Assembly (NCBI GenBank): GCA_041499075.1
Contig: JBGQJN010000001.1
Location: forward strand, 10,388-74,387
DNA from: Minisyncoccia bacterium
Lineage (GTDB): Bacteria > Patescibacteriota > Minisyncoccia > 2-02-FULL-40-12 > IGHO2-01-FULL-4-A
Direction of reading: 5' to 3'
Length of the DNA: 64,000 bases
Positions 1-58,469 of this stretch are shown here, piece by piece. A program made the translations under genes and the position numbers. Within the stretch, counting starts at the first letter, position 1, and every line of letters begins with the position of its first letter. Below the pieces are notes generated by a model that saw nothing but the letters and a program-made list of their open reading frames with translations, had not been told where the DNA came from and did not search any database.

Positions 1-445
1 TACCGAAATCACGTTTTGAAACCAGGTACTTCTGTATACGGTGCATAATCAAACGGCCAAGCGAGACAAAGATTATGGCAAAAAACCAGGCGCCCAGAAC
101 CAGAAATCTTGAATTGAAAAGAGTCTGCTGCAAAAAGATATAGATGATTACCACCATAATGCTGGCAGAAGAAGCAACGATAACTTTGAAAAATTCCTCC
201 AGAGTTTTACGCGTACTAGACAAGCTATAGAGCCCGGAAATGGCGTAACAAATTATGAAAATCAGCGACATAGTCAAGATCAAAATAAAGTATTTTTCCA
301 AGGGCAGGTTAAACTGAAAAAGTACTGGCCGAAATGAAGACAAAATCTGTGTCCTCAAAAAGTATGTCGTAAGCCCGGCCAGTATAAGCATGATAAAATC
401 AACCGGTAGAAGCAGGGCGCTGAATGTAAGTTCGGCTTTCTTCAT
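1..445 (-). CDS. N-terminal part (gene continues beyond window start) of a polyprenyl glycosylphosphotransferase / bacterial sugar transferase-like membrane protein
   Basis: Minus-strand ATG at 445 reads MKKAELTFSALLLPVDFIMLILAGLTTYFLR, then hydrophobic segments. This pattern is typical of the N-terminal membrane domain of the WbaP/EPS sugar-transferase family. It is not in the ORF track because no stop falls within the window. Confidence 0.4.
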   Translation of the reverse strand, partial: MKKAELTFSALLLPVDFIMLILAGLTTYFLRTQILSSFRPVLFQFNLPLEKYFILILTMSLIFIICYAISGLYSLSSTRKTLEEFFKVIVASSASIMVVIIYIFLQQTLFNSRFLVLGAWFFAIIFVSLGRLIMHRIQKYLVSKRDFG

Positions 446-490
446 GGTGTTAAATCTATTATAAAAAGAGTGAATTTTCAATGACCACTC

Positions 491-516
491 AAAAACCGGC
501 CGTATGGCCGGTTTTT
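491..516 (-). terminator. Rho-independent terminator downstream of rnpB (hairpin CCGGCCAUACGGCCGG plus U-run on minus strand; symmetric)
   Basis: aaaaaccggccgtatggccggttttt is a perfect 6-bp GC stem flanked by A-run and T-run. Confidence 0.6.
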
Positions 517-520
517 GAGT

Positions 521-1031
521 GCTTGGTAAATCTATAAGCCGAATTCTGTTTTTGTGTGATTATTTATCTGGGACCGGTATTGCTACCGACCTCTAGCGTA
601 CTAACTTTTCGAGGCACCACATTACTGCGATGCAACGCTGTACTTGCACCAGGCAGGGTTTAGCGCGACATCCGCCTTGCGGCGGAGCGATCCCGTTCGG
701 GAACTTTTCACCCGCAGTCCACGGCTTGCGCCGTGGAGCTCGGAATAGTCTCTGTGCCACTTTCCCTAGATTTTCCCAGCTCCACTTTTTCTTATTTACA
801 ATATAAGTAAAATTGTAGTTCTAGATTGTACTACTATCTTACCTTTCTAGAAAACTCGAAAAGTGGGGCTGGGTTATATCCGGCGGCCGTTAACCGCTGC
901 CTTTGGCTTCACTAGTGCTACGCACCGCGTCAGTAAACTTAAGCAGTGCTTGCACTGCGTAGCTTTAGCGGAGCAGTGTTCAGACTTTCCTCCCCGACAT
1001 AATGTGGGGGCAATCACCCGATTTACCAAGC
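521..1031 (-). ncRNA. rnpB: RNase P RNA (bacterial ribozyme), unusually long (~510 nt) with an AU-rich internal insertion
   Basis: The minus strand reads GGGGAGGAAAGUCUGAAC near the 5' end, matching the conserved P4 5' strand GGAAAGUCCGGGC. Near the 3' end it reads ACAGAAUUCGGCUUAUAG, matching the conserved ACAGAAnnCGGCUUA; P4 pairing CUGAA/UUCGG is preserved. A GCGCUAAACCC motif resembles CGGUAAAC. The P1 stem pairs GAUUUACCAAGC at 1020-1031 with 521-532. The region is about 600 nt of non-coding, highly structured sequence. Confidence 0.65.
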
Positions 1032-2628: not shown

Positions 2629-3627
2629 TTATACCAAATTTTCGTCTATGGTTTCCAATACCTTTCGCTTAAGATTGTAGCCATTGCCATACTCAAGCAT
2701 GCCCAAGTAAGAATCGGCAACTTCTTTTTTAACACCACAAGAAATCTTTTTAAACATTCGTCTTCTAGTTGTAGTCCTCAAAACTCTGTGATCTGGAAAA
2801 TTGACCCAGCCGAGAAAATCTACACCGGAAGTTATTGTTCTAATTGAGATTTTGTCTTGATGTAATTTCAGATGAAGTTTTCTATCTAAGAACTCCCCTA
2901 TCCTAGATAGAGCCAACCGAAGCCAAACTTTATCTTTGGATAAAACAACAAAGTCGTCAGCATAACGGATATAATATTTGGCACCAAGTTCATGCTTAAT
3001 GAACTGGTCAAACTCATTCATATAAATATTTACAAAAAGCTGGGAGGTCAGATTGCCCAAGGGTAAACCCCTACCATAACCAGCCGAGAAGCTATCAATA
3101 ACTTGCGACAAAAGCAATAATACATCCTGATCGGAAACATATTGAGATAATATGTTTTTCAAAATGACGTGATTAATATTTTCAAAAAACTTTTTGATAT
3201 CACACTTGAGCGTCCAACAAGTTCGGGTGTTGTTACTACTGGCTTGGTAAGCAAAACTTCTGAAATGATTGATAGCTTTGTGCGTTCCCTTGTTTAATCT
3301 GCAGGAAAAAGAATCGGCCACAAAGACCCGATCAAAAAACGGATACAAAATTCTGTAGATAGCATGGTGAAGAAGACGATCTCGGACCGGCGCTTTGTGT
3401 ATATGCCTTGGTTTCGGATCAGAGATATTGAACGCTTGATATCCGCCGTGTTTATATGTATGATTGGCAAGATGCAATTGCAAACTTAATATATTATCCA
3501 TCAGGTTTAACTGAAAGTCCTGCACGTCACGCTTGTTTCGTTTACCTTTAACGAATTCTCGCCAAGCCTCTAGCAAATTATCAACACTAATTATATCCTC
3601 AAATTTATGAGCCAAAATAGTTTTCAT
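2629..3627 (-). CDS. Diversity-generating retroelement reverse transcriptase
   Basis: Contains LPLGNLTSQLFVNIY, where the DGR-specific SQ replaces QG in RT motif 4. Also has the YADDFVV catalytic motif and a DGR-RT-like N-terminus NLLEAWREFVKGKRNKRDV...PVRDRLLHHA. The start is placed at the internal MKTIL (3627); the 383-aa track ORF would overlap avd. Confidence 0.85.
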   Translation of the reverse strand: MKTILAHKFEDIISVDNLLEAWREFVKGKRNKRDVQDFQLNLMDNILSLQLHLANHTYKHGGYQAFNISDPKPRHIHKAPVRDRLLHHAIYRILYPFFDRVFVADSFSCRLNKGTHKAINHFRSFAYQASSNNTRTCWTLKCDIKKFFENINHVILKNILSQYVSDQDVLLLLSQVIDSFSAGYGRGLPLGNLTSQLFVNIYMNEFDQFIKHELGAKYYIRYADDFVVLSKDKVWLRLALSRIGEFLDRKLHLKLHQDKISIRTITSGVDFLGWVNFPDHRVLRTTTRRRMFKKISCGVKKEVADSYLGMLEYGNGYNLKRKVLETIDENLV

Positions 3628-3648
3628 TTCAATAATCCATCTTCTAAG

Positions 3649-3658
3649 CCCCCCCCCC
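3649..3658. repeat. C10/G10 homopolymeric tract in the divergent avd-RT intergenic region
   Basis: Ten consecutive C lie 9 nt upstream of the avd ATG and 21 nt upstream of the RT ATG (opposite strand). Confidence 0.9.
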
Positions 3659-3667
3659 AGGCCTTCA

Positions 3668-4009
3668 ATGTCCATTATCCAAAGATTTGTCGCGGCATAC
3701 AAGCTTTGGCAAGAGTACATCAGCCACTTTCCGAAAAAATCTCGATATACGCTTGGAGGCAAAATTGACTCTCTTTTCATAGATACCGCAGAACTGATGT
3801 TTACTGCAAGTTATCTCACAAAAGACAAGAAACTGCCATATATTCAAAAAGCGTTGGGCACTTTTGATTTATTAAAATTCTTTCTGCAAATAGCTTGGGA
3901 AATCGGATCAATGGATAACAAGAAATATGCTGCGTTATCTGAACCGCTTAGTGAAATAGGAAGAATGCTCGGAGCCTGGTACAAACAAACACAAACCCCG
4001 TCTAAATAG
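3668..4009 (+). CDS. avd: Avd-like accessory variability determinant (four-helix-bundle, 23S rRNA IVS-protein family)
   Basis: 113 aa with FPKKSRYTLGGKIDSLFIDTAELMF...LGTFDLLKFFLQIAWEIG, the pattern of the four-helix-bundle/Avd family. It lies between TR and RT on the opposite strand. Confidence 0.7.
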   Translation: MSIIQRFVAAYKLWQEYISHFPKKSRYTLGGKIDSLFIDTAELMFTASYLTKDKKLPYIQKALGTFDLLKFFLQIAWEIGSMDNKKYAALSEPLSEIGRMLGAWYKQTQTPSK

Positions 4010-4036
4010 GCGGGTTTTGTAAAAATAACATTAGTT

Positions 4037-4168
4037 TCGGACAGCAGCGAAGCGGCAGTTGTCATTCCACCTGTTGTCGTTCCAGTTCAGGTTCAGCTTG
4101 CGCTTCGAGCCGTTCCTGTTGAGGTAAGGCACGTTGCGGTTGTCGTTGCTATTCTGCCACACGGAGCC
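4037..4168 (-). repeat. DGR template repeat (TR)
   Basis: 132 bp, near-identical to 4516-4649 apart from 25 positions. Every one of those is A on the minus strand of TR and G or T in VR. The TR sense strand is rich in AAC codons. Confidence 0.85.
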
Positions 4169-4423
4169 GTGTACAAGATATCATCTTTACCACTGCCCCT
4201 TGAATACTCTCAGGGCTGTATCGTATTTGGGATCTATAATCCTCCAATACCTTGTACCAAGTATTGTTATTTTAAGAGAAACTAGCGAGGCACGCTGAGA
4301 GAAGCCGTAACCGCCCCCATTCTGTCCTGCATAGCTCTAGAATTCGGCCACCGGAAGCCTTAACCGCCGGCAGATTCGCCTAATATCCAGATATATTAGA
4401 ACATATATTTTTATAAAAATGAA

Positions 4424-4458
4424 GAACTCCCGCTCGCGGAAACCGCGAACGGGAGTTA
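4424..4458 (-). promoter_or_regulatory. GC-rich hairpin immediately downstream of VR / target-gene stop (possible DGR homing-associated hairpin or terminator)
   Basis: actcccgctcgcggaaaccgcgaacgggagt is a 13-bp stem, followed on the minus strand by a U-rich run. Confidence 0.5.
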
Positions 4459-4511
4459 GGAGACCAGGGGTCCAGGGATCAACGGACCCAGAACTCCAGG
4501 AATCAGGGAAC

Positions 4512-5120
4512 CTACTTGCGGACAGCAGCGAAGCGGCAGCCGCCACTCCACCCGCCGTCGCTCCAGCCCAGGAACAGCCCGCGCTCCGAGCCGCCCCCGA
4601 TGAGGCAAGGCACGCTGCGGAAGCCGCTGCTATCCTGCCACACGGAGCCAAGAGCGAAGATTGGGAACTCGCGCTGCTTTTCCGGGTAGGTGACACCGAA
4701 GGCCAGTAGCTCAAGGAGAATCGCCGGACGCATGCCCTTTGACTCGAGGTCTTTGAGCACGTCGTCAGTCGACATATTCCGCCCATAGTGAACGAGCTCG
4801 ATGACGACATCCTGCTGGCCGCTGCCTTGGATCGGGAAGTGGTCGGCGTTGATGTCCTCATTCGCCCAGTCGTACTTGCCGGCCACGATCATCTCCTTGA
4901 GGGACTGGCCGTAGTTGACGACGACCTTGTAGCAGTTCTCGGCCACTCCGACCGCCGCGTCGATCAGCTTCAGAACGAACTCGTCGGTCAGCCGCTTGAT
5001 TGTGTCTTCGGACAGGCCGAGGATCGCTTCCTCCGCCTGGCGCAGCTTGACCGCGCCGATGATCCGAGTGGTGATGGTTGATACGAACCCGAACGCCGAA
5101 CCGATCGCTGACTTTGCCAT
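4512..5120 (-). CDS. DGR target protein (202 aa; C-terminal variable region, likely C-type-lectin-fold ligand-binding domain)
   Basis: C-terminus ...WQDSSGFRSVPCLIGGGSERGLFLGWSDGGWSGGCRFAAVRK is encoded by VR. GC content (~60%+) is well above the surrounding ~45%. Confidence 0.7.
   Translation of the reverse strand: MAKSAIGSAFGFVSTITTRIIGAVKLRQAEEAILGLSEDTIKRLTDEFVLKLIDAAVGVAENCYKVVVNYGQSLKEMIVAGKYDWANEDINADHFPIQGSGQQDVVIELVHYGRNMSTDDVLKDLESKGMRPAILLELLAFGVTYPEKQREFPIFALGSVWQDSSGFRSVPCLIGGGSERGLFLGWSDGGWSGGCRFAAVRK
4516..4649 (-). repeat. DGR variable repeat (VR) at 3' end of target gene
   Basis: See the TR entry. VR covers the last ~44 codons of the 4512..5120 ORF and runs to its stop codon. 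Confidence 0.85.
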
Positions 5121-5321: not shown

Positions 5322-6068
5322 CTATCCTAATGTAGCGGCTATTTTCGAAATCTCCGCAAATTCTTGTTTGTGCAAACTGGCACCGCCGATGACGGCGCCG
5401 GATATTTCTGGGTACTTGAGGAAATCAGCTACATTTTTTTCATTAACAGAGCCACCGTACAAACAGCCTGTGGCCGAGAGCTTATAGCTGATAGCTAAAA
5501 AATCTTTAATGATTTTAATGGCCCCAAGCGTATTTTCGGGAGTATCGGGTTCAGCTCCCGGTGCAGTGCTTATCGCCCAAACCGGCTCGTAGGTAATGAG
5601 AATTTTAGAAACTTCGCCGGCATTTAAGCCATTCAAATCAGCAGTTATCTGGTCTTCTAAAATCTTTTTTCTGTCGTCTCCTCTGTTTCGTTCGCCAACA
5701 AGCAAAACCGGGGTTATGCCGGCAGCCAACGCCGCTTTGATTTTTTTATTTATCACCTCGTCGGTTTCGCCTATTTTGTAACGCCTGTCCGAATGACCAA
5801 CCAAGACATGGGTTACGCCAAAATTCTTTAGCATATCCGGAGAAATCTCGCCAGTATAAGGCCCGGACCCCTCCCAAAATATATCTTGGGCGCCAAGATG
5901 TTCTCTGTCTATCTTAGACAGTTCTTCAATAAAAATCACCGGCGGACAGATCACGCTCGTTATACTGGCATATTCGCCGGCAGACTTAACTTCGGCGGCA
6001 AAAAGATCCTGTGCTTCATCTAGCTTAGCCGGGTTCATTTTCCAGTTTGCAATGATAATTTTTGTCAT
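5322..6068 (-). CDS. tpiA: Triosephosphate isomerase
   Basis: IIANWKMN, VGHSDRR and GE motifs of TIM. The start is probably the internal MTKII. Confidence 0.9.
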   Translation of the reverse strand: MTKIIIANWKMNPAKLDEAQDLFAAEVKSAGEYASITSVICPPVIFIEELSKIDREHLGAQDIFWEGSGPYTGEISPDMLKNFGVTHVLVGHSDRRYKIGETDEVINKKIKAALAAGITPVLLVGERNRGDDRKKILEDQITADLNGLNAGEVSKILITYEPVWAISTAPGAEPDTPENTLGAIKIIKDFLAISYKLSATGCLYGGSVNEKNVADFLKYPEISGAVIGGASLHKQEFAEISKIAATLG

Positions 6069-6676
6069 TTCTTTTTTTTGATATGTTTCCAAACAAACCA
6101 GATCAAGCCAACAATAATTACCGCCCCGATCACAAGTTCAAATTTCTGAAAATACGGCCTCAAAACATCCCAGTGATTACCCGTAACATAGCCAATGTAA
6201 ACCAGCGGCAGATTCCAAACTAATGACCCAAGTAGAGTGTACCAAACAAATCTTTTAAAATTAATACGGCTAACACCAATAATCAAAGAACTGAAAGTCC
6301 TGACACCCGGTAAAAGTCTTGAAAAGAAGGCAATCTTCGCTTCATAACGACCTGACCAGCTTTCAAGCTTTCTGACATCGGATTGATTTATCAAAAAGTA
6401 TTTACCGTAACGATCGACTAGCGGCCGTCCACCTAAGAATCCAACGGTATAGATCGCCACCGCTCCGGCAATATTTGCCGCCGTTGCGATCAGTACGATT
6501 AGCCACAGATTAAGTTTGCCGCTTGAAGCTAGGAAACCGCTAAAAGGCAAAACTACCTCTGACGGAATCGGTATGGCGGCGCTTTCAAGCATCATTGTAA
6601 AAAAAATACCGCCATAACCGAACTTGGCAATCAGAGCTAGGGCCCAAGCTACTATTTTTTCTATAATTGGACTCAT
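6065..6676 (-). CDS. DedA/TVP38 family membrane protein
   Basis: 203 aa, multi-transmembrane, with the conserved DedA region FFSRLLPGVRTFSSLIIGVS. Confidence 0.7.
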   Translation of the reverse strand: MSPIIEKIVAWALALIAKFGYGGIFFTMMLESAAIPIPSEVVLPFSGFLASSGKLNLWLIVLIATAANIAGAVAIYTVGFLGGRPLVDRYGKYFLINQSDVRKLESWSGRYEAKIAFFSRLLPGVRTFSSLIIGVSRINFKRFVWYTLLGSLVWNLPLVYIGYVTGNHWDVLRPYFQKFELVIGAVIIVGLIWFVWKHIKKKK

Positions 6677-6679
6677 TTT

Positions 6680-7681
6680 TTAAATATGCGTTTCTTTCAG
6701 TATTTTGGCCGACTCATCCGGGTCAACTACATTTACATCAATGCCACTGCCCAATTCAAAAGCGCCGATCATTGAAACCTTTGGTATTATTTCTATATGC
6801 CAAGTGTAAAAATTATGAGCATCAATTTCTGTTGTATCGAGGGGCGCAGTGTGAATAAAAAAATTGTAATCGGGATTATTCAAACCGGCGTGCATATTTT
6901 TCAACACTATTTGCATAGCTTCGCCTAGATAAGTAAGCTGCTCTTCGGGCATCTTTTCAAAGTGGGCATGGCCTGTCTGCGGGAATATCCGGACTTCGTA
7001 GGGAGTTCTGGAAATAAAAGGACAAAAGGCGATAAAATATTCATTCTCATAAAGTATTCTTTTCTTTTCTTCTTTCTCCCAGTCAATCATGACGTCATAA
7101 ATCCGTTTTTTATTTTTTTTATAGAACTCAGCCGAACCGTTAATGCTCCTTTTGACATCCGGCGGCAGAACCGGAATGGAAATAATTTGGGAATGCGGGT
7201 GCTCGATGCTTGCTCCAGCTTGAGGTCCGTTGTTGTGGAAAATTAAAGTATATTTGCGAGAGCTGTGATCCAGCATGTCGAGATACCTGTCCTGGTAAAT
7301 CTTGAAAACTCTGGCCAATTCTTCTTTTGAAAATTGCCATAATTGCTTATCGTGATCCCTGAAAATCACTATCTCGTGCCGGCCAACGCCGTTTTCAACA
7401 TTGAATGGGCCGGCCTTTTTGATCTGGGCAATTTCACCTTCTAAAACGGCTGGGAATTTATTTTTGGTAACTTTGGCCGACCAGTCTGACTTATCATCAT
7501 TCCAGTAGGTCGCCAAAACCACGTTGCCGTATTTCTCCGGATCTTCAAAAGGGCACTTGTCCTTGGATAGCGCTTCAACCTCGGGCTTTTCTTTTTTGAT
7601 AGTGTCCGGCCTCTTAGCTCTGCCGGTCGCAAACAATACCCATTCGCCGGAAACCAGATCTTCACGAAATTCGTTTAACAT
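6680..7681 (-). CDS. Galactose-1-phosphate uridylyltransferase-like (HIT superfamily, GalT class I)
   Basis: SGEWVLFATGRAKRP plus the HPHSQI (HxHxQ) active-site motif. Confidence 0.6.
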   Translation of the reverse strand: MLNEFREDLVSGEWVLFATGRAKRPDTIKKEKPEVEALSKDKCPFEDPEKYGNVVLATYWNDDKSDWSAKVTKNKFPAVLEGEIAQIKKAGPFNVENGVGRHEIVIFRDHDKQLWQFSKEELARVFKIYQDRYLDMLDHSSRKYTLIFHNNGPQAGASIEHPHSQIISIPVLPPDVKRSINGSAEFYKKNKKRIYDVMIDWEKEEKKRILYENEYFIAFCPFISRTPYEVRIFPQTGHAHFEKMPEEQLTYLGEAMQIVLKNMHAGLNNPDYNFFIHTAPLDTTEIDAHNFYTWHIEIIPKVSMIGAFELGSGIDVNVVDPDESAKILKETHI

Positions 7682-15270: not shown

Positions 15271-15478
15271 TTTGAATAAGCAATTTTGAGTTAATAGCGG
15301 TCAAAAATCTTGCAATATCTTTCTTGGTTTTATTTATCTGACTAAAATCCTTCAAGGTCTTATTGGCCAATTCAAACCTCAATTTCCCCAAGCCAACCTT
15401 CAACTCTTTGAGCATTTCCTGAAGTTCTTCTTTACCCTTGTTTTGCAAATCTGCGTATTTCATAGTATTTGACATCAA
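15254..15478 (-). CDS. rpmC: Ribosomal protein L29
   Basis: Sequence and position. Confidence 0.8.
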
Positions 15479-15530
15479 TTTAACTTCTTGCTATTATACA
15501 GAAAAGTAGCAATTTAACAAGGAGCTTCAA

Positions 15531-15683
15531 ATGCTAATATTCAAGATACTAGGCATAGCAATCTATCTACTTGTTACCCTCAGCGTAGGTTATTCATTAA
15601 CTTCTTTATCTACTAAGGAAATCTTTAAGACCCTACTTCCAAGTTTTATTATTCTACTAATAGCATGTTACTTAATCCCTTAG
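15531..15683 (+). CDS. Small hydrophobic protein (50 aa, two predicted TM helices), antisense to the ribosomal-protein operon; followed by a terminator hairpin
   Basis: RBS aaggag 7 nt upstream of ATG; MLIFKILGIAIYLLVTLSVGYSLTSLSTKEIFKTLLPSFIILLIACYLIP. The hairpin cttgcaataaattgcaag plus T-run follows. Below the ORF-track size cutoff. Confidence 0.4.
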   Translation: MLIFKILGIAIYLLVTLSVGYSLTSLSTKEIFKTLLPSFIILLIACYLIP

Positions 15684-15743
15684 CGGCTCGGCCCAACTTG
15701 CAATAAATTGCAAGTTTTTATTTTTAAAAAAAGACAAGATTAA

Positions 15744-15952
15744 GCGTAGCAGGGTACCCTCTGGGGGATTCCAAAATTGGGAATTGCTGCTTGGTGAAGT
15801 TTCTTGTTGGCGGTGCTTTAGCCCGCCAATAGAATCTCCGTGGTCGCAAGCGGTATAATTATTCCTACCGCGAGCGAATTCACAATTTTGAAATAGTGGA
15901 GTCTGCCGCTGGAGCAGACGAAACGTCCTCCAGAGGATACCCTGCCGAAGCA
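15744..15952 (-). repeat. Structured intergenic repeat family 1, copy A (~210 nt, includes a 52-nt insertion relative to copy B); abuts rplP stop codon
   Basis: Near-identical to 18271-18429. Closing inverted repeat gcagggtaccctctgg / ccagaggataccctgc plus several internal hairpins. No coding potential. Confidence 0.7.
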
Positions 15953-16357
15953 CTATTTTTTAATAAACCTCGTCTTAATTGGTAACTTATGCGCCGCCAG
16001 TCTAAATGCCGCCCTTGCCGTCTCTTCACTTACACCATCCATTTCAAAAATTATCCGGCCGGCTTCCGTCGGTGCCACAAAATGCGACAATGACCCTGCG
16101 CCGCCGCCCATGCCCACTTCAGCGCCCTTCTGCGTCCTTGGCTTGTCAGGGAAAACTCTTATCCATAATTTACCGCCTCTTTGAATAAAATGGGTAACCG
16201 CGCGACGCGCCGATTCCAGCTGTGTCGCTTTTAGCCAGGTTGATTCCATCGCTTTTAAACCATAACTGCCAAAGCTCAAATAGTGGCCGCGGGTTGTGAC
16301 TTTTTTCAAACTTCCCTTATGTACCTTACGATGTTTTATTCTTTTAGGTTGTAACAT
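15953..16357 (-). CDS. rplP: Ribosomal protein L16
   Basis: MLQPKRIKHRKVHKG. Confidence 0.9.
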   Translation of the reverse strand: MLQPKRIKHRKVHKGSLKKVTTRGHYLSFGSYGLKAMESTWLKATQLESARRAVTHFIQRGGKLWIRVFPDKPRTQKGAEVGMGGGAGSLSHFVAPTEAGRIIFEMDGVSEETARAAFRLAAHKLPIKTRFIKK

Positions 16358-17950: not shown

Positions 17951-18184
17951 ATGGCTACGCAATACCCTCCGAATATGATTATTTACAGTAGAAGAGGCCA
18001 AATTTATAATTACCTAGCCAGTACCTGCTTGATCGTGGCGGTTCTACTCATGATCTCTACTTTCTTTCTGGATATTATCGGAATGAAACATTTGGCAAAC
18101 ATCATCATTCTCTCAGCACTTTTCACTGGTATATCTAGTCTAATTTTCAATATCAAAGCCTCGAAACATAGCACTGTGATTTAG
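17951..18184 (+). CDS. Small hydrophobic protein (77 aa, two predicted TM helices), antisense to the ribosomal-protein operon; followed by a terminator hairpin
   Basis: RBS aaggag upstream; MATQYPPNMIIYSRRGQIYNYLASTCLIVAVLLMISTFFLDIIGMKHLANIIILSALFTGISSLIFNI. The hairpin ctcgcgaaaaatcgcgag plus T-run follows at 18190-18220. Confidence 0.45.
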   Translation: MATQYPPNMIIYSRRGQIYNYLASTCLIVAVLLMISTFFLDIIGMKHLANIIILSALFTGISSLIFNIKASKHSTVI

Positions 18185-18270
18185 CTCTGACTCGCGAAAA
18201 ATCGCGAGTTTTTATTTTTAAAGCGGCGGAATCGAAATGCCTTGCGTGTATCGCACTTGCTAAAAATCAA

Positions 18271-18429
18271 GCGTAGGCAGGGTACCCTCTGGGGGATTCC
18301 AAAATTGGGAATTGCTGGGTCGCAAGCGGTATAATTATTCCTACCGCGAGCGAATTCACAATTTTGAAATAGTGGAGTCTGCCGCTGGAGCAGACGGAAC
18401 GTCCTCCAGAGAGTACCCTGCCGAAGCGC
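18271..18429 (-). repeat. Structured intergenic repeat family 1, copy B (~160 nt); abuts rplB stop codon
   Basis: Near-identical to copy A; same closing stem cagggtaccctctgg / ccagagagtaccctg. Confidence 0.7.
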
Positions 18430-19257
18430 TTACTTTTTCCTCCTTCTTACTATAAACTTACTAGATTTTTTCTTGCGGTTACGCGTCTTAACTCCCAGTG
18501 CGTGTTTGCCCCATGGTGTCTTCGGATATTTCAAACCGATTGATTGTCTGCCTTCTCCTCCGCCATGCGGATGATCCACTGGATTCATGGCCGAACCGCG
18601 CACTTTTGGCCGTCTACCAAGATAGCGCGAACGGCCGGCTTTGCCAAGACTGATCGAACCGTGTTCCGTGTTGGATAATTGCCCGATAGAAGCCATGACT
18701 TCACCGCTAAAACGCCTGACTTCAGATGACGGCATAACCACCTGGACATACTTGCCTTCGTGCGCCAGCACCGTGGCACCGCCGCCAGCCGAGCGGACCA
18801 CCTGCCCGCCTTTGCCCGGCTGTAACTCAAGATTGTGGACTATCGTGCCTTGAGGGATATTTTTAAGTTTCATCCTGTTGCCCGGCTCAAGCGCCGTTTT
18901 TTCAGAAGCGACAATGCTACTGCCGGCCCTTAATCCTTCCGGAGCGAGAATGTACCTTCGCTCGCCGTCGGAGTAATGCAGTCTGGCGATCCTTGCGGTA
19001 CGATTTGGATCGTACTCAATGGAGAAAACTTTAGCCGGTATGTTCACTTTGTCCTGTTTGAAATCAATAAACCGGTAAACCCTCTTCACGCCGCCGCCGC
19101 GATGTCGGGAGGTTATCCGACCTTGGTTATTCCTGCCGACCGCACGCTGAAAACCGGTCATTAGATTCTTCAACGGCTCAACTTTGGACAGATTTGAGTA
19201 ATCATAACCCAGCATCTGCCTTCGTCCCGGGGTTGTCGGTTTGTATATTTTGGACAT
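18430..19257 (-). CDS. rplB: Ribosomal protein L2
   Basis: 275 aa, VDHPHGGGEG motif. Confidence 0.95.
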   Translation of the reverse strand: MSKIYKPTTPGRRQMLGYDYSNLSKVEPLKNLMTGFQRAVGRNNQGRITSRHRGGGVKRVYRFIDFKQDKVNIPAKVFSIEYDPNRTARIARLHYSDGERRYILAPEGLRAGSSIVASEKTALEPGNRMKLKNIPQGTIVHNLELQPGKGGQVVRSAGGGATVLAHEGKYVQVVMPSSEVRRFSGEVMASIGQLSNTEHGSISLGKAGRSRYLGRRPKVRGSAMNPVDHPHGGGEGRQSIGLKYPKTPWGKHALGVKTRNRKKKSSKFIVRRRKK

Positions 19258-23243: not shown

Positions 23244-23362
23244 AATAATAACCTTCTAACAAAAAAGTGAGAACCATGCAAGCCAGCGAGTGGGAATGGT
23301 TGCGGCTTATCTACGGGCGGGGTTTGACTAAAAAAGCTAATTCTGCTAATCTGTCTCCAACA

Positions 23363-23830
23363 ATGGAGAGCACACCCGAAACCAAATCTTACGAGCTAGC
23401 CTATCACTTGACGCCTGATATTGAAGAGAGTGAGGCCAGAAACAGAGTGCAGGAGCTCAATGATATAATAACGACCAGCGGCGGTTCAGTTTTAGTTGCC
23501 AAAGAACCGAGAAAGATACATTTGTCTTACTCCGTTAAAAGCAAAAATTATGCTTACTTCGGGATAATGGACTTCCAGGCGGCCAGTGACTCGATAGACA
23601 AGATAAACAACCAGATGAAGCTTCAGAATTCCATCTTACGTTATTTGTTAGTTAAGAAGCCGGAATTCAAGGAAGTGCGAACTTTGGGTGAATATCGCGC
23701 TCGAGCTAGAGTCAAAAAGACTTATGAACCTGCGCCGACAGAAGCCCGCAAAAGCGCACCCAAAGAAAAAACGGCGGAAGAAAAAGCTCAATTAGATGAG
23801 GAACTGGCAAAAGTAATAGAAGGATTATAA
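23363..23830 (+). CDS. rpsF: Ribosomal protein S6
   Basis: KSYELAYHL...YAYFGIMDFQA pattern; the start is chosen at the internal MEST. Confidence 0.8.
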   Translation: MESTPETKSYELAYHLTPDIEESEARNRVQELNDIITTSGGSVLVAKEPRKIHLSYSVKSKNYAYFGIMDFQAASDSIDKINNQMKLQNSILRYLLVKKPEFKEVRTLGEYRARARVKKTYEPAPTEARKSAPKEKTAEEKAQLDEELAKVIEGL

Positions 23831-23834
23831 CAAT

Positions 23835-24368
23835 ATGAATCTAAACAAAGTTTTCTTAATCGGCCGGCTGGCCGCAGATCCGGAATCGCGTACAACACCA
23901 TCGGGGCAGACCGTGACTACTTTAAGATTGGCCACAAATCGCGTTTGGAATAACAGAACTACTGGCGAGAAACAAGAACAGGTTGAGTTTCACACCGTGA
24001 TTGCCTGGGGTAATCTCGCCGAAATATCCTCCAAATACTTACGCAAAGGCCAGCTGGCGCTTTTTGAAGGCCGGATACAGACAAGGTCATGGCAAGGCCA
24101 AGATGGTGTCAAGCGTTATCGCACCGAGATCGTAGCCGACGGCTTACAGTTGGGACCCAAGGCCAGCAATATGCCTGGTAGTTATACGCCAAGGGACTCA
24201 ACATCGGATCAGCAAGTCCAGAGCAATAAACCAGCTTCCGCCGCTAGCACAATAAAAGAAGAAGATATTCCGGTTATCAACGAAGACTCCCCTATTACCA
24301 GCGATCCGGTTATAGCCGATAGCGAAGTGGAGGAAAGTGAAATTAATCTTAAGGATATACCTTTTTAA
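23835..24368 (+). CDS. ssb: Single-stranded DNA-binding protein
   Basis: OB-fold N-terminus LIGRLAADPESRTTPSGQTVTTLRLATNR...FHTVIAWGNLAE and an acidic C-terminal tail ending DIPF. Confidence 0.9.
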   Translation: MNLNKVFLIGRLAADPESRTTPSGQTVTTLRLATNRVWNNRTTGEKQEQVEFHTVIAWGNLAEISSKYLRKGQLALFEGRIQTRSWQGQDGVKRYRTEIVADGLQLGPKASNMPGSYTPRDSTSDQQVQSNKPASAASTIKEEDIPVINEDSPITSDPVIADSEVEESEINLKDIPF

Positions 24369-24369
24369 T

Positions 24370-24582
24370 ATGGTTTGCATTTGTTGCCAGGAAAAAATTA
24401 ATCACGTTGATTATAAAAATACGGACATCCTCCGTAAGTTTGTCTCGGGCCAATTTAAGATCTCCTCTTCTGCCCGCACCGGCCTGTGCCAGAACCATCA
24501 GCGCATGGTCGCCAACGCCGTTAAACTCGCCAGATATATGGCACTGATGCCATATACGAAGTTACAGACATTGAAAAAATAG
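24370..24582 (+). CDS. rpsR: Ribosomal protein S18 (copy 1)
   Basis: MVCICCQEKINHVDYKNTDILRKFVS...; starts 1 nt after the ssb stop. Confidence 0.9.
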   Translation: MVCICCQEKINHVDYKNTDILRKFVSGQFKISSSARTGLCQNHQRMVANAVKLARYMALMPYTKLQTLKK

Positions 24583-24586
24583 TTGA

Positions 24587-24650
24587 CGAGTGTAGGCGAG
24601 GAAATACTGAGGCCAACAGGCCGAACGTGTCGCTCGCCCCTCAATTTTTC
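24587..24650 (+). repeat. Intergenic repeat family 2 (one ~30-nt unit GGCGAGGAAATACTGAGGCCAACAGGCCGAACGTG in stem-loop), directly after rpsR stop
   Basis: Shares TTGACGAG...GGCGAGGAAGTACTGAGGCTAGCAGGCCGAACGTGCCGCTCGC with 56848-56925 and, inverted, 29400-29521. Confidence 0.6.
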
Positions 24651-25520: not shown

Positions 25521-26348
25521 TTATGCCCTGTGTATTTCTAATAGATCGCTTAGAACACTGTCCAAGTACATTTTGATTTGTAGAATCTCCGACCGTCCCT
25601 CTCTGTGGCTGTGAGCCGAAAGTGATCCACGTTCATAAACAGCCCTGACTAAACGAGGCACACTTTCATCAACTATTTGAGCAGCCATTTTCGGAGCTTC
25701 CATGGCCGTATCGGGGATTTCTCTGATTTTGAGAATATAGTGTACTTTCTGTTTCATTGTTGGCTGCTTTTCCCCTTCTTCAAATTTAAAGCCAGGGATC
25801 GCCTCAACTTCGGCATCGGGAGCCAAGTGATCCAAAACCTCACGAAGAACCTCTCGCAACTCAGTAGCCGTACCTCGGTATGATGCTCGGTTTTCCTGCA
25901 GGTCAGCAAGTGCTTGTTTATACGATATCGCCGCTCCAGGAACAACCTGTTCAAGCATATTTAGTATAACTTCATCCTGCTGGGAAGTATTTTTTGTGGC
26001 TGTTCCTTGAGTCCCTCCGGAGAGTCGTTGACTATTTAAATATTCGCGAGATATTTCTGCCTCAGCAAGATTTGCTCCAATTTTTGCAAAAACTTTTTTG
26101 TATACTGTTACCGAGGTGCGGGCACTGGCCATTCTCATCAAATCTTGCATCTGCTTGTCCAGCACCTCCGTTGCAACCATGCCAACAACCAGTTCGGGCC
26201 GTAACTCTCGAAAATATCGTTGCACAAAATATCGGATTCGGTTCTGCAGATTAGCAGAACTGATTTGAATAGAATTGGCACGATTTACTCTGGAAAGAAT
26301 CAGTTTTGTTTCGCGCACAATGGAAAGAAAGGTGTCGCTTTCCGACAC
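25521..26348 (-). CDS. Hypothetical protein (275 aa), predicted all-helical; C-terminal R-x5-H motif (VYERGSLSAHSH) reminiscent of HEPN-type RNase/abortive-infection domains
   Basis: ORF in the island; motif-level resemblance only. Confidence 0.35.
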   Translation of the reverse strand: MSESDTFLSIVRETKLILSRVNRANSIQISSANLQNRIRYFVQRYFRELRPELVVGMVATEVLDKQMQDLMRMASARTSVTVYKKVFAKIGANLAEAEISREYLNSQRLSGGTQGTATKNTSQQDEVILNMLEQVVPGAAISYKQALADLQENRASYRGTATELREVLREVLDHLAPDAEVEAIPGFKFEEGEKQPTMKQKVHYILKIREIPDTAMEAPKMAAQIVDESVPRLVRAVYERGSLSAHSHREGRSEILQIKMYLDSVLSDLLEIHRA

Positions 26349-26384
26349 CCCAGGAGATGTGTTAGCAGATTTAATTCTAGCGGC

Positions 26385-26712
26385 GCTTTTTGAAGGCCGG
26401 ATTCAGACAAGATCATGGCAAGGCCAGGATGGCGTCAAACGCTACCGCACCGAGATTGTAGCCGATGGTTTACAACTGGGACCCAAGGCAAGTAATCCAA
26501 GCACTGCGAATTATCAATCAAACAATCAGACATCGAGACCATCCTCCTACACCTCTCCTTCGCATAAAGCTCCGGATGAGCAAAGCAAGTCTTCGGTAAA
26601 GGAAGAAGACATTCCCGTTATCAATGAAGACTCTCCCATTACCAGCGATCCGGTTATTTCTGATAGTGATGTGGAAGAAACGGAAATTAATTTAAAAGAT
26701 ATACCGTTCTAA
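26385..26712 (+). pseudogene. Diverged duplicate of the ssb 3' half (lacks OB-fold N-terminus)
   Basis: About 85-90% nucleotide identity to 24060-24368. Encodes LFEGRIQTRSWQGQDGVKRYRTEIVADGLQLGPKASN...EEDIPVINEDSPITSDPVI...INLKDIPF. The unrelated upstream frame supplies an ATG. Confidence 0.7.
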
Positions 26713-26814
26713 TCAACGAATAGCGAATATGTACGAATATACCAATATACGAAATGGATTAATTAGTACTTTCGTAAATTAGTATAAATTCGTAATTCGT
26801 TGATAGCGACAAGC

Positions 26815-27024
26815 ATGTGTATTTGTTGCCAGGAAAAAATTAATCACGTTGATTACAAAAATACGGACATCCTCCGCAAGTTTGTTTCCGGTCAATTTAA
26901 GATTTCTTCTTCGGCCCGCACCGGCCTGTGCCAGAATCATCAGCGCATGGTCGCCAACGCCGTCAAACTCGCCCGGTATATGGCGTTGATGCCTTATACC
27001 AAGTTACAAACTATAAAAAAATAA
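26815..27024 (+). CDS. rpsR: Ribosomal protein S18 (copy 2, intact paralog; many synonymous differences vs copy 1)
   Basis: MCICCQEKINHVDYKNTDILRKFVSGQFKISSSARTGLCQNHQRMVANAVKLARYMALMPYTKLQTIKK. Confidence 0.75.
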   Translation: MCICCQEKINHVDYKNTDILRKFVSGQFKISSSARTGLCQNHQRMVANAVKLARYMALMPYTKLQTIKK

Positions 27025-29371: not shown

Positions 29372-29399
29372 TGAAATATTCTATTCTTCCGTTGCAATC

Positions 29400-29521
29400 T
29401 TATCATCACATTCAGGCTGCTGCCTTCAGTATTTCCTACATTCAGCTTGTTAGCTTCAGTACTTCCTCGCTTCCTCTCGGTCGTCGCCGGAGTTTATACT
29501 GAGCCAGCGAAGTGCTCCTCA
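29400..29521 (-). repeat. Intergenic repeat family 2 (expanded copy, two tandem ~30-nt units) directly after ftsK stop
   Basis: Reverse complement reads GGTTGAGGAGCACTTCGCTGGCTCAGTATAAACTCCGGCGA...GGAAGTACTGAAGCTAACAAGCTGAATGTAGGAAATACTGAAGGCAGCAGCCTGAATGT. Confidence 0.6.
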
Positions 29522-29524
29522 ACC

Positions 29525-42417: not shown

Positions 42418-43200
42418 TTATTGACTGGCGACTGGTGACCCGATTGCTTTTTTGATGGTTTCCAATATCAGCTCCACTGATTTTTTAGAATTATCGTTGG
42501 CCATAATCGGGTAATCAATTTGCTTGGGATCGCTATCAGTGTTTACTATGCCGACTATCTTAATCCCCATTTTCTTAGCCTCATGAACCGGTAACTGGCT
42601 TTCCTTCAAAGAAGAGACAAAGATAATATCCGGCAGGCGCGCCAGCTTGCGGATGCCGTCAAATTTCTTCTTCATGGCCACAATTTCGCGCTCTTTAAGG
42701 ATTCTTTCTTTTTTGGTAAATTTCTCAAAGCCATCTTCGGCTTGTTTTTTTTCAAGATCTTCCAGGTATTTTACTCGCGCCATAATTGTCTTAAAATTAG
42801 TGGCTGTACCACCAAGCCAGCGTTCTATGACATACGGCATATTAAGGGCTTCGGCTGTGGCTTTGACGGCTTCAGCCGATTGTTTAGTCAAACCGACAAA
42901 TAAAATCAGCTTGCCTTCAGCCAGCGCCGACTTCAAAAAATTAGCCGCTTTTATCAAACTGCCGGTTGTTTTGATCAAATCAAGGATGTAGATATTATCC
43001 TTGAGAGTATAGACGTAGGGCTTCATATTTGGATGAAAAACGGTCTTCTTACGACCAAAATGCATCCCCGATTTGACCATGTCTTCATAGGCCGGCAATA
43101 AGTTTTGGATGTTTGTTTCTGGCATATTAGTCAGAATGGTAGCAAGAAAAGTTAAATTATGCAAATTTTTGAGCTTGGCGCGTACACTCTCTATCACCAT
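42418..43200 (-). CDS. rpsB: Ribosomal protein S2
   Basis: Sequence and tsf adjacency. Confidence 0.9.
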
Positions 43201-43403
43201 TTGTCCGCTCAGCGAGCGGACTGCATTCCGTTGAAAGCGTGGATTTTACTCGCAGTGGCGAATTATACTGCTCACAAACCATGCAATCCACTCTTTCAAC
43301 GGTGCTATAGAGCATGTGCGCCAGACTCAAAAATTTATCCAAAAATTACAAACCGGAGCCGATAGCAATCGGCGATACCTGGCAATCAGATAGTTATTAA
43401 GTA

Positions 43404-43486
43404 AAGGATGTTTTAGTAGGCGGAGGCGCGTGCGTTTTGCGCCTGTCCCGAAGGGCCAGCAAAACACGCGCGCGTAGCCGTACTAA
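43404..43486 (-). repeat. Intergenic repeat family 3 (~85 nt GC-rich hairpin element), copy 1
   Basis: Reverse complement is nearly identical to 58386-58469. Core gcgcgtgcgttttgc-gcctgtcccgaagggccagc-gcaaaacacgcgcgc. Confidence 0.6.
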
Positions 43487-43532
43487 ATACTTTTTTGCTA
43501 AGTGGGTTTGTAATTTTTGAGGAAACTGGCAA

Positions 43533-44102
43533 TTATTTTAAGACATACAAATACACCAAATGGCGCCCTATTTTTTGAGATTTAAGCAGTTGGAATTCCG
43601 GGTGAGAAGTAAGATCAATCGGAAAACTGGGACAGAGGATTTTAATGCCTGGCCTGACTTCACACGCAATCTTAGAAGCAAGCTGGTTAATTAACTTGGG
43701 AAAAAGATACATATAGATAAAGGTTGCCTCCGACAAATCGGCAGACAGGAAATCTCGTCTCTTGATATTAAGCTTTGCCCTATCGGCGGCAGAGGTATTG
43801 AGAGCTAATGCAAATTTAGATTCCAGGTACGGCCAGAAAGATACCTCACAGCCAACGGCTTTTTTGACGCCGAAATTTTTAACTGCCGATATCAGCACTC
43901 GCCCGTCACCAGAGCCGAGATCGTAAAAAATATCCTTGCCGGATAAGCCACCAAATGATAATAACTCCCCCACTAGTTTGCTCGCTATCGGAACATAAGG
44001 CGCACCGTGAATGCTTGAAACTACACCCGACAGTAAAAATACACTAAAAACTAACACTACGGCCAACATCAAAAATAAAATAAAAACAAGAAGCAGAATC
44101 AT
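43533..44102 (-). CDS. Membrane-anchored class I SAM-dependent methyltransferase-like protein
   Basis: N-terminal TM helix, then YDLGSGDGRVLI (motif I). Confidence 0.5.
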   Translation of the reverse strand: MILLLVFILFLMLAVVLVFSVFLLSGVVSSIHGAPYVPIASKLVGELLSFGGLSGKDIFYDLGSGDGRVLISAVKNFGVKKAVGCEVSFWPYLESKFALALNTSAADRAKLNIKRRDFLSADLSEATFIYMYLFPKLINQLASKIACEVRPGIKILCPSFPIDLTSHPEFQLLKSQKIGRHLVYLYVLK

Positions 44103-44172: not shown

Positions 44173-44550
44173 CTAGAATGCGCCACCGCTCAAGCTAGAT
44201 ACAACGTAGTTTGCGGTAGCAAGTATCAAACCAACAGCCACCACCACCACTATTCCTATGAAACCATGAAGTATCGTGCCTCTGGCTTCCTCCGCCTTTT
44301 TCGCGTCACCTCGGGCAAGCATGTATTTCAAACCACCATAAACTATGAAAATAACTCCGATCGTGACACCAACTACCATCAAATATGTAGCAGCCTGGTT
44401 GATGATGCCAACAATACCATTTAATGTTACTGCTCCCGTTGTAGAACCAGGATTAGGAATAGGCACCTTTGCTTGTGCTAATGCTAATAACGGTAAGGCA
44501 AACCATGCCAACGGACTTGCCATCTTAATCATTTTTTTAATTTTATTCAT
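44173..44550 (-). CDS. VirB2/TrbC-like pilin (125 aa: signal peptide plus two hydrophobic helices separated by a charged loop)
   Basis: LNGIVGIINQAATYLMVVGVTIGVIFIVYGGLKYMLARGDAKKAEEARGTILHGFIGIVVVVAVGLILA; this architecture is typical of T4SS pilins. Confidence 0.55.
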   Translation of the reverse strand: MNKIKKMIKMASPLAWFALPLLALAQAKVPIPNPGSTTGAVTLNGIVGIINQAATYLMVVGVTIGVIFIVYGGLKYMLARGDAKKAEEARGTILHGFIGIVVVVAVGLILATANYVVSSLSGGAF

Positions 44551-44677
44551 ACGACACCCCCCTTCAGACTAGAATCTAGCGCTAGTTTTTAGTTACTAGT
44601 GCTTATCGCCGGCTGAACTAAAAACTAAACCTAGAACCTAGAAATCTTAATATTAAATTCTTGTTTCTATAGACAAA

Positions 44678-45700: not shown

Positions 45701-45704
45701 TGAA

Positions 45705-46835: not shown

Positions 46836-46884
46836 ATTTAATTTGATTGGATTTCTTTTATCAAGGGCTCTAAAATGTCAAACG

Positions 46885-47227
46885 TTAGTTGGTTAGCAGG
46901 TCTTGCGCAAGGCGATCAATCTTTTCCGGGATCAGTTGAATTATTAAATCAATATCGGCTGTAAACCGCGGCCTACCCCAAATCGCAAGGGCAAAACTTC
47001 CGGTAATAACGTAGGAAATTCTTAAATTATCAAGGATTGCGGCTATTATTGTCAGTAAGTTTTCTTGCTCCATAATTAAAATATGCCGGGTTAAGCTTGC
47101 GGGCCAACTTAAAGAAATTGCTGACTATTTTTACTTTTTGTTCGGCCGACATTTTTTGAAAAACCTCGTCCTGAATATCTTGAGCGGTTTTTATTTTGGC
47201 CGTTTGAGCTGATGACATATTGGGCAT
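46885..47227 (-). pseudogene. Possible remnant of a small two-gene module: 65-aa ORF plus truncated minimal nucleotidyltransferase (MNT)-like ORF (GSFALAIWGRPRFTADIDL)
   Basis: Two overlapping short ORFs; the second has the GS...DxD nucleotidyltransferase motif but only 62 aa. Confidence 0.3.
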
Positions 47228-47274
47228 TGTACTTGCTATTAATTCCCTTATGATATTTTACTACCTAAAACGAA

Positions 47275-47958: not shown

Positions 47959-47963
47959 ATTAA

Positions 47964-56844: not shown

Positions 56845-56847
56845 TTG

Positions 56848-56925
56848 ACGAGCACTTCGCCAGCTCAGCATAAACTCCGGCGAGGAAGTACTGAGGCTAG
56901 CAGGCCGAACGTGCCGCTCGCTTAT
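56848..56925 (+). repeat. Intergenic repeat family 2 copy directly after rpmE stop
   Basis: TTGACGAGCACTTCGCCAGCTCAGCATAAACTCCGGCGAGGAAGTACTGAGGCTAGCAGGCCGAACGTGCCGCTCGC. Confidence 0.6.
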
Positions 56926-58332: not shown

Positions 58333-58385
58333 TTGTAATCAAAAATTAAAAACTAGCTTAGCAAAAACTTTTTAGTACGGTTGCG

Positions 58386-58469
58386 CACGTGCGTTTTGCT
58401 GGCCCTTCGGGACAGGCGCAAAACACACGTGCCTCCACCTACTGGAACATCCTTTGATTGGTAATTAGG
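58386..58469 (+). repeat. Intergenic repeat family 3, copy 2 (inverted relative to copy 1)
   Basis: agtacggttgcgcacgtgcgttttgctggcccttcgggacaggcgcaaaacacacgtgcctccacctactggaacatcctttg. Confidence 0.6.

Follow-up and report, generated by a model that had tools for sequence, protein, structure and literature searches.

A family of branched interspersed elements of about 165 nt in the gene spacers of Yanofskybacteria-like Patescibacteria

Copies of the element in the window

The window analyzed here, a stretch of 64,000 nucleotides (nt) of contig JBGQJN010000001.1 (GCA_041499075.1) from a Minisyncoccia bacterium, carries on its minus strand a ribosomal-protein superoperon in which near-identical copies of a structured element of about 165 nt stand directly past the stop codons of rplP and rplB. 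Taken together with two more copies in the window and others on related contigs, this element is multi-copy, its fold and loops are conserved, and it is co-oriented with its hosts, constrained at orthologous sites, and tolerated within an rRNA intron. The best explanation, to which we give about an even chance of being right, is that these copies belong to an uncatalogued family of interspersed structured elements of Yanofskybacteria-like Patescibacteria, which would be co-transcribed with their host genes, keep their fold under selection at the RNA level, and spread with help in trans. The host adjoins Candidatus Yanofskybacteria on the basis of its L22 protein, which is 66-68% identical to those of named metagenome-assembled genomes (MAGs).

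The 5' end of copy A overlaps the rplP TAG stop (15953-15955), and copy B abuts the rplB TAA (18430-18432), which is taken in by its outermost helix AAGCG/CGCUU (coordinates in Table 1). Apart from 52 extra bases in A, the two copies are identical over 41 nt and 94% identical over 120 nt. The extra bases form a hairpin limited to copy A, inserted between the terminal hairpin of the long arm and the ACCAAGC bulge. Copy C is diverged: its core starts 27 nt past the stop of a 228-aa open reading frame (ORF; 58727-59413, minus strand) and shares about 90% identity with copies from other metagenome contigs. Minimum free energies of -94.4 kcal/mol (A) and -79.8 kcal/mol (B) were predicted, and the folding energies of A, B, and C correspond to z = -7.5, -9.4, and -5.6, respectively, against dinucleotide shuffles.

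An initial annotation of the sequence had described A, B, and C as near-identical and diverged copies lying flush with, or 27 nt from, a stop codon, in the same orientation as the upstream gene, with a closing stem enclosing several hairpins and a 52-nt insert in A. All of this is borne out by the coordinates and alignments, the stem sequences given there being readings of the minus strand, on which these genes and elements lie. The count of three copies has to be amended, since the covariance model detected a fourth one, D, which is diverged, antisense to the flanking rpsB and methyltransferase genes, and back to back with a hairpin of another family; copy D is decaying. A, B, and C have the common ends GGCAGGGUA/UACCCUGCC; the stem sequences of D and of the copies in other genomes are unrelated to these, and the interior is kept.

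Conserved fold and covariation

The consensus obtained with RNAalifold is a three-way junction, in which an outer helix P0 and a closing stem P1 (16-25 bp for P0/P1) lead to a hairpin P2 and to a long arm P3/P4 with a 7-nt bulge on its 3' side. Covariation is strong: compensatory changes occur at 26 of the 49 pairs in a MAFFT alignment of seven members, and double changes at 39 of the 49 when 12 members are aligned to the model. In the 12-member alignment, which was fitted to the model so that its covariation figures are somewhat inflated, 89.4% of the cells pair, versus 65.0 +/- 1.3% with shuffled partners (none of 500 shuffles reaching the observed value) and 35-44% with slid partners. The P1 sequences are wholly different yet complementary, and this is seen in the MAFFT result and in the raw sequences as well.

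What is conserved across the members is the loops and not the stems. The CAGC of the P2 loop is kept in all the aligned copies, the bulge has the consensus ACCWWGC (ACCCAGC in copy B), and in most members the P4 loop contains AUUAUA and P3 a U.G pair. The termini vary between genomes, whereas the interior is conserved. Both the fold and the sequences of the loops are kept by selection. On the strand proposed as sense, 36 G.U pairs were counted versus 19 A.C mismatches in an alignment fitted to this strand, and two of the G.U pairs are nearly invariant; this excess favors a structure at the RNA level, although single-stranded DNA is also compatible with it.

No conserved reading frame was found in the element: the frame which is open in C and in the members L015-L021 (L numbers designate loci on other contigs) has a stop in A, B, and L026. 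Since the substitutions are compensatory in the stems and not synonymous, the element does not behave like a protein-coding gene or a pseudogene.

Several other resemblances were considered and rejected. A hammerhead-like motif might be read from UGAUGAGGAAA in copy C (P4 loop), but stem II is lacking and A and B do not have the motif. The tRNA-minihelix reading (P4 followed by ACCA) lacks a T-loop and gave no ARAGORN match. A pseudoknot between the P2 loop UCCAGC and GCUGGA is not conserved in D or L031. A P1 arm copied from the host spacer was suspected from the 7-mer ATTGCCA common to L034 and L031, which is not repeated at the other two junctions and was taken as chance. Integron attC sites, 6S, signal recognition particle and 5S RNAs, and bridge RNA were dropped because of their differing architecture or the silence of Rfam.

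Distribution of the family

Family members were sought by scanning metagenomes with a pattern built from the conserved core, by protein look-ups, and with the covariance model. Ten further members were identified, all on Patescibacteria contigs, so that the element is not confined to the present genome; with the four copies of the window, this makes 14 copies. True homologues were present on five distinct metagenome contigs (pattern scan); two more were reached through spurious ORF calls, and a further three in ribosomal operons of relatives. The spurious calls were caught by searching the protein database with the translated element as a pseudo-peptide, which matched only two proteins, leading to loci L028 and L029.

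The 12-kb locus L021 and the 8.5-kb locus L031 carry two copies each. Those of L021 follow rplL and an unknown ORF located just upstream of a tRNA; those of L031, a Yanofskybacteria MAG, follow rplP and rplN, and the copy of another MAG (L038) also follows rplN. In two different organisms (L017 and L028) the element occupies the grpE-dnaK spacer. In L015/L029 it follows LemA, downstream of groES-groEL, and in L020 a membrane ORF following gatA. Past the element and LemA, L029 carries a G+C-rich stretch of about 550 nt (6340-6900), rich in complementary segments, in which neither an ORF nor an Rfam match was detected and which might represent a further structured RNA of large size.

The copy of L026 is located within an intervening sequence of the 16S rRNA gene, where a stem of about 45 bp lengthens it. 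Near E. coli position 790, this gene is split by the intervening sequence of about 795 nt (about 113-907, minus strand), consisting of the element, a group I intron core (RF00028, 54 bits), and a 60-aa ORF. The element lies 5' of the core and outside it, past the 5' splice-site region, and the pairing of GGAU|UAA with UUAGUCC would place it in the L1 loop of the intron. An ORF further upstream in the same gene presumably resembles, as judged by eye, the four-helix-bundle proteins of 23S rRNA intervening sequences. No Intron_gpI match was found in the window.

Other collections gave negative results. Chance matches only, within unrelated coding genes, were obtained when the species representatives of GTDB, which do not include the source genome, were scanned with the core pattern; the scan of viral contigs gave one chance match, which the covariance model did not confirm, and the phage and plasmid collections contained no match to the element. 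The whole window was compared with the 4227 covariance models of Rfam 15, as the initial annotation had proposed, and no match to the element was obtained at the gathering score; at E <= 10, copies A/B, C, and D gave chance-level matches only. No description of this element was found in the papers searched, and a loose regular-expression scan for a broader membership was too unspecific.

The Logan contigs L011 and L012, which are independent short-read assemblies, both stop at the identical base in copy A, after CUAUUU, as expected if assemblers collapse the repeats A and B. Such elements will therefore be under-represented or misassembled in MAGs.

Conservation at orthologous sites and orientation

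Two spacers are occupied by the element in two genomes each. In the grpE-dnaK spacer of L017 and L028, the element is 88.5% identical, versus 71% for the grpE DNA and 49% for the GrpE protein. In the rplN-rplX spacer of L031 and L038, it is 86% identical, versus 46% (saturated) for the third codon positions of rplN. G-C to A-U swaps occur in P1 in both of these pairs. The fact that the identity of the element exceeds that of its neighbors at orthologous sites identifies it as a long-term resident under purifying selection and not a recent neutral insertion.

All the copies but D, that is, 13 of the 14, are oriented like the upstream gene, and D adjoins a hairpin element co-oriented with the operon, tail to tail as at copy C. 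Since the copies lie in short spacers in the orientation of the upstream gene, they would be transcribed as the mRNA tail of that gene or as an intercistronic segment.

Placement at stop codons and other hairpin families

A pairing of the host stop codon with the element's own 3' end can be read in many copies: UAAGCG/CGCUUG in B, UAGC/GCUA in L031, and UGAUUGACAA/UUGUCAAUCA in L038. The length of RplP is the same with or without the element, so that the insert neither truncates nor extends the protein. It had been proposed initially that the element targets the sequence right after stop codons. Targeting is not needed as an explanation: with intergenic spacers of mostly 1-20 nt in this genome, an insert which is tolerated will inevitably end up against a stop codon.

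Hairpin families of at least three unrelated kinds likewise lie flush with a stop codon and pair with it, some of them at junctions which the main family occupies in the window. Family 2 is a long hairpin of about 190 nt, with the closing stem CAAAAAUUACAAA and the GC-rich inner hairpin GCGUUUUGC...CCCGAAGGG; it begins directly past the stop of a co-oriented gene and meets the main element tail to tail at two places. The third repeat is small and reads GGCGAGGAARUACUGA-[GGCC-loop-GGCC]-GAAYGU...CGCUCGCC; its apical stem covaries, it has no Rfam match, and its CUGA/GAA internal loop looks like tandem G.A pairs of a k-turn-like or loop-E-like kind. Another family, ACCUUACCAAUUUUUCUUUGUUUGU...AAAGAAAAAUUGGUAAGGU, occurs at ribosomal junctions of relatives, including the rplN-rplX junction, which is the site of the main family in L031 and L038; here too the stop is paired (UGA...UCA, UAG...CUA).

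Long spacers and antisense small ORFs

The spacers harboring A and B are 474 nt (rplP-rpmC) and 535 nt (rplB-rpsS) long, versus 24 and 8 nt at the same junctions in the relative L034; the unusual length pointed out in the initial annotation is thus real, and the short spacers of L034 are consistent with the element being an insertion. What that annotation missed is that the element fills these spacers only in part: more than half of each is taken up by a small ORF antisense to the operon. Both ORFs encode hydrophobic peptides (50 and 77 aa) and are preceded by an AAGGAG ribosome-binding site and a promoter-like site of their own. The hairpin-plus-U terminators following them end 28 nt (A) and 61 nt (B) before the element. 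The 77-aa ORF has been called as a gene by JGI and is an orphan, matching only itself among 5.8 billion proteins; a Pfam scan gave no match for either ORF. Antisense small hydrophobic ORFs occur at both of these junctions in three lineages and are mutually dissimilar in sequence; they may represent either toxin-like genes of type I or membrane peptides which evolve rapidly.

A promoter-like sequence facing rpmC suggests that the operon is re-started after the insertion. With separately promoted units and terminators in its spacers, the S10/spc superoperon appears to be cut here into separately promoted pieces, a break which the element family would explain in this lineage.

Table 1. Coordinates of the element copies and of other features in the window and in related loci (L numbers).
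Feature	Position	Strand	Basis or context
rplB	19257-18430	minus	superoperon
rpsS	17894-17550	minus	followed by rplV, rpsC
rplP	16357-15953	minus	superoperon
rpmC	15478-15254	minus	superoperon
Copy A	15742-15958	minus (= RNA sense)	covariance model, 82.8 bits; alignment with B
Copy A extra hairpin, UUGGCGG-loop-CCGCCAA, 52 nt	15790-15841	minus	gap in A/B alignment; bracketed by repeat families
Copy B	18269-18434	minus	covariance model, 123.8 bits, E = 1e-33
Copy B closing stem P1, 5' arm GGCAGGGUACUCUCUGGAGG	18403-18422, pairs with 18276-18295	minus	inverted repeat; consensus structure
Copy B hairpin P2, GUCUGC-UCCAGCG-GCAGAC	18377-18395	minus	alignments, pair counts
Copy B long arm P3/P4	18296-18370	minus	conserved U.G pair, AUUAUA loop motif, 7-nt 3' bulge
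Copy C, diverged	58535-58701	minus	covariance model, 166 bits, E = 4.5e-46; inverted repeat
Copy D, diverged	43163-43336	plus	covariance model, 47.1 bits, E ~1e-11; 39-nt inverted repeat
50-aa hydrophobic ORF	15531-15683	plus	rplP-rpmC spacer, antisense to operon
Promoter-like site of 50-aa ORF	15469-15497		
Intrinsic terminator of 50-aa ORF	15695-15716	plus	
77-aa hydrophobic ORF	17951-18184	plus	rplB-rpsS spacer, antisense to operon
Terminator of 77-aa ORF	18189-18210	plus	
Promoter-like TTGTTA-16-TATAAT facing rpmC	15493-15520	minus	10/12 consensus matches
Antisense small ORFs in L031	about 3310-3420, 5940-6030		
Antisense small ORFs in L036	512-805, 3433-3696	minus	
Family 2 long hairpin	58328-58531	plus	flush with TAG of 171-aa ORF 57817-58332(+); tail to tail with copy C; inverted repeat, alignment
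Family 2 long hairpin	43340-43526	minus	after stop of methyltransferase gene 43533-44102(-); tail to tail with copy D; inverted repeat, alignment
Family 2 in L036	3210-3395		
Third small repeat	24583-24640	plus	flush past rpsR stop
Third small repeat	56845-56925	plus	flush past rpmE stop
Third small repeat	29372-29524	minus	flush past ftsK stop; tandem
ACCUUACCAAUUUUUCUUUGUUUGU...AAAGAAAAAUUGGUAAGGU family	L036 278-450, L031 3824-4000, L039 7861-8030		ribosomal junctions of relatives
Diversity-generating retroelement	2629-5120		
Reverse transcriptase	2629-3780	minus	
Template repeat	4032-4168		
Target gene	4512-5120	minus	
Variable repeat	4513-4649		3' end of target gene
rpsF-ssb-rpsR cluster	23267-24582		
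Partial duplicate of the cluster	26275-27023		
ORF between the duplicates	25521-26348	minus	predicted pPIWI-associating nuclease domain
Cluster with T4SS-pilin domains	44173-50978	minus	
CCCGTNCCNGT tandem repeats	44961-45088, 48643-49208		

Comparison with known repeats and RNAs

The genomes of Patescibacteria measure about 1 Mb, and a few bases separate neighboring genes. Several inserts of 165 nt are nevertheless kept here in the most essential operons and are better conserved than synonymous sites, so that either the fold does something or its preservation is what renders the insert harmless. The element is closest in kind to the transcribed repeats of the REP, ERIC, and Correia type, but with a conserved branched interior and variable, covarying ends.

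The ERIC sequences of enterobacteria, the Correia/NEMIS repeats of Neisseria, the RUP and BOX elements of pneumococcus, and the Rickettsia palindromic elements are interspersed repeats of 100-170 nt, located in operon spacers and co-transcribed, and the Rickettsia examples show that such repeats also occur in reduced genomes. Repeats of the ERIC/Correia type form long hairpins which can affect mRNA stability or be cut by RNase III or RNase E, and what defines them is the conservation of their terminal inverted repeats, which target duplications often accompany. The present element resembles this group in its length, its operon-spacer setting, and its long hairpin. It differs in that its termini vary between genomes, its internal loops are conserved, its fold is branched, and it has resided for a long time at orthologous sites, where it evolves more slowly than synonymous positions. 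Variable termini around a conserved interior are the opposite of what defines a MITE (miniature inverted-repeat transposable element) by its terminal inverted repeats.

The L17 downstream element and similar Rfam motifs are conserved structures located right after a ribosomal-protein gene, a placement shared by several copies of the present element, which, unlike these motifs, is without a match in Rfam 15 and is not tied to one gene (grpE, LemA, unknown ORFs, and the 16S intron being other hosts).

Interpretation

If the element is co-transcribed with the upstream gene, as its position suggests, its fold might make an insert of 165 nt tolerable in essential operons by forming a compact domain which keeps the stop codon close to the downstream start. 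With its 20 bp or more, the closing helix could serve as a protective hairpin at the 3' end, as an RNase III-type processing site between cistrons, or as both. The copies would have spread at the DNA level as non-autonomous elements helped in trans, and the GTAG tag found beside the stem in some of them (see below) might point to a single-strand mechanism like that of REPs and their associated tyrosine transposases (RAYT). The structured 3'UTR or processing RNA envisaged in the initial annotation is in part supported: the element is structured, multi-copy, co-oriented, and flush with stop codons. What that annotation named as refuting it is not borne out, since other genomes carry copies and covariation is present. 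The family offers a system in which to study how operon mRNAs are punctuated in ultra-small bacteria and how repeats spread where recognizable mobile-element genes are almost lacking; for RNA biologists, its three-way junction, with compensatory changes at dozens of pairs, is a well-supported new motif.

Several points weigh against this explanation. Position alone suggests that the element is transcribed, and the cutting of P1 by RNase III or another nuclease is a proposal. The G.U excess depends on the strand to which the alignment was fitted, and co-orientation with the genes could reflect co-orientation with replication. Among about 200 kb of related sequence, no mobilizing enzyme came to light, nor was any target-site duplication evident: TA is present at both ends of A, L031-1, and L021-2, where it is indistinguishable from the palindromic outer helix UAGC/GCUA, and is absent in B, C, L015, and L017. 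Lastly, CAGC, ACCWWGC, and AUUAUA are conserved beyond the needs of a harmless fold, which suggests a specific partner or activity.

Since the loops are more conserved than a harmless fold requires, the main rival is a trans-acting or catalytic RNA, processed from abundant mRNAs and rRNA precursors and acting via its loops, either by binding a protein or as a small ribozyme; located past highly expressed genes, it would be supplied in large amounts. The three-way junction with its invariant loop nucleotides and an interior more conserved than the stems and the neighboring protein genes would suit such a role, as would the hosts found by routes which do not favor ribosomal loci, all of which are highly transcribed (rplL, grpE-dnaK, groES-groEL-LemA, the region upstream of a tRNA, and the 16S intron). 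Several copies per genome with divergent closing stems are, however, less readily accommodated, and copy D is antisense to its neighbors and decaying. The sister lineages L036 and L039 have unrelated hairpin families at the same junctions, which indicates that there the site matters and not this particular RNA. As no protein partner, known ribozyme core, or weak Rfam similarity was found either, we regard this alternative as doubtful, although it is the best placed of those considered.

It is also rather doubtful, though conceivable, that the family represents a new class of functional RNAs, either a device coupled to the stop codon or a new small ribozyme or processed non-coding RNA exploiting the most highly transcribed operons. 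In the stop-coupled version, the closing helix would sequester the stop codon, and the terminating ribosome would open the helix, so that translation of the upstream cistron would be tied to processing, decay, or re-initiation at the next one. If this were true, the unrelated hairpin families lying flush with stop codons would point to an operon organization common to the lineage in Patescibacteria.

The element might alternatively be purely selfish DNA of the REP/REPIN or IS200/605 palindrome-associated transposable element (PATE) kind, folded as single-stranded DNA and read by a tyrosine (HUH) transposase encoded elsewhere, with an orientation following replication and no role as RNA. GTAG-tagged REPs are multi-copy, extragenic, mostly located just downstream of coding regions, and probably transcribed; their TAG ends supply stop codons to flanking ORFs, and their stems vary by compensatory change, with G.T(U) pairs present (PMC3733652). 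The element shares its multiplicity, its place just past coding regions, its compensatory stems, and its G.U pairs with them. An exact (C)GTAG stands directly 5' of P1 on the antisense strand in five of the 14 copies (A, B, L017, L028, and L021-2), variants of it (GAG, CGTG, CTAG) in C, L021-1, and L031-1, and the remaining copies lack it; the sense strand often begins with RTAG, supplying the host stop codon, and both features have been described for GTAG-tagged REPs (PMC3733652). Variable stems with constant loops are also found in DNA sites recognized by structure, and the near-identity of A and B within one genome would fit with an element of this kind.

A REP, however, is a simple hairpin of 20-40 bp, and a REPIN consists of two inverted REPs (PMC3733652), whereas the element is about 165 nt long, that is, 4-8 times the length of a REP, and its most conserved part is an interior three-way junction and not a pair of REPs. 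Since it fails on size and architecture, it was not filed as a REP or REPIN, and the tag, exact in only five of the 14 copies, is a lead toward REP/RAYT-like (IS200/605 superfamily) mobilization and nothing firmer. With the PATEs of IS200/IS605 and the guide RNAs of TnpB/IscB it has in common that it is structured, strand-specific, and orientation-biased, without long terminal inverted repeats. In contrast to a guide RNA, both of its ends pair together and leave no single-stranded guide, and neither the HEARO nor the IS605-orfB family of Rfam gave a match. A Pfam scan of the ORFs of the window and the inspection of related loci revealed no Y1 transposase (tnpA), tnpB, iscB, or RAYT gene, and tblastn with an IS200 TnpA sequence gave no match in the window or the Patescibacteria loci. 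The MITE or PATE suggested in the initial annotation is therefore not established. Residence at orthologous sites over a long divergence, compensatory changes, and conserved G.U pairs fit better with selection at the RNA level, and the purely selfish alternative appears unlikely.

A cis-regulatory RNA controlling neighboring genes at the level of transcription or translation is quite improbable, be it a processive antiterminator of long operons (EAR and put RNA being examples), a terminator or attenuator, or a switch of the downstream gene which senses heat or a ligand. Its setting in long, highly expressed operons (S10/spc, hrcA-grpE-dnaK) and in an rRNA gene would be apt, the element lies just upstream of hairpins able to terminate transcription in A and B, and GCUGGAAU might pair alternatively with AUUUCAGC or with the P2 loop UCCAGC, as judged by eye, although this pairing is not conserved in D and L031. 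The downstream neighbors are nonetheless unrelated (dnaK, a tRNA, antisense ORFs, a convergent gene), the sense strand has no U-tract past the stem, and no intrinsic terminator was predicted on the minus strand at A or B, the terminators of these spacers being on the plus strand only and serving the small ORFs. A terminator would not be tolerable within the 16S rRNA intron, and no riboswitch-like similarity was found in Rfam. The antitoxin of a type I toxin-antitoxin-like module is the least probable alternative by far, since 10 of the 14 copies have no adjoining small ORF; the convergent hydrophobic ORFs beside A and B, with their own promoter-like sites and terminators, and the analogous mini-ORFs which L031 and L036 have at these two junctions recall such a module, but the element overlaps neither the ORFs nor their terminators (the ORFs adjoin A, B, and L031-1 without overlap), and L036 pairs the same layout with unrelated hairpin families.

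Other features of the window

A diversity-generating retroelement is present near the start of the window. Its reverse transcriptase was considered as a candidate enzyme for the element and rejected, since it belongs to the template repeat/variable repeat pair; these two repeats are 80% identical, and the target gene carries the variable one at its 3' end. Part of the rpsF-ssb-rpsR cluster occurs twice, the second ssb fragment and rpsR being 84-90% identical to the first, and an ORF with a predicted pPIWI-associating nuclease domain lies between the duplicates. A cluster of genes with T4SS-pilin domains includes a gene for a 1004-aa protein with a lytic transglycosylase domain, and one of the T4SS-pilin-domain genes carries a long Gly-Thr repeat encoded by CCCGTNCCNGT tandem repeats.

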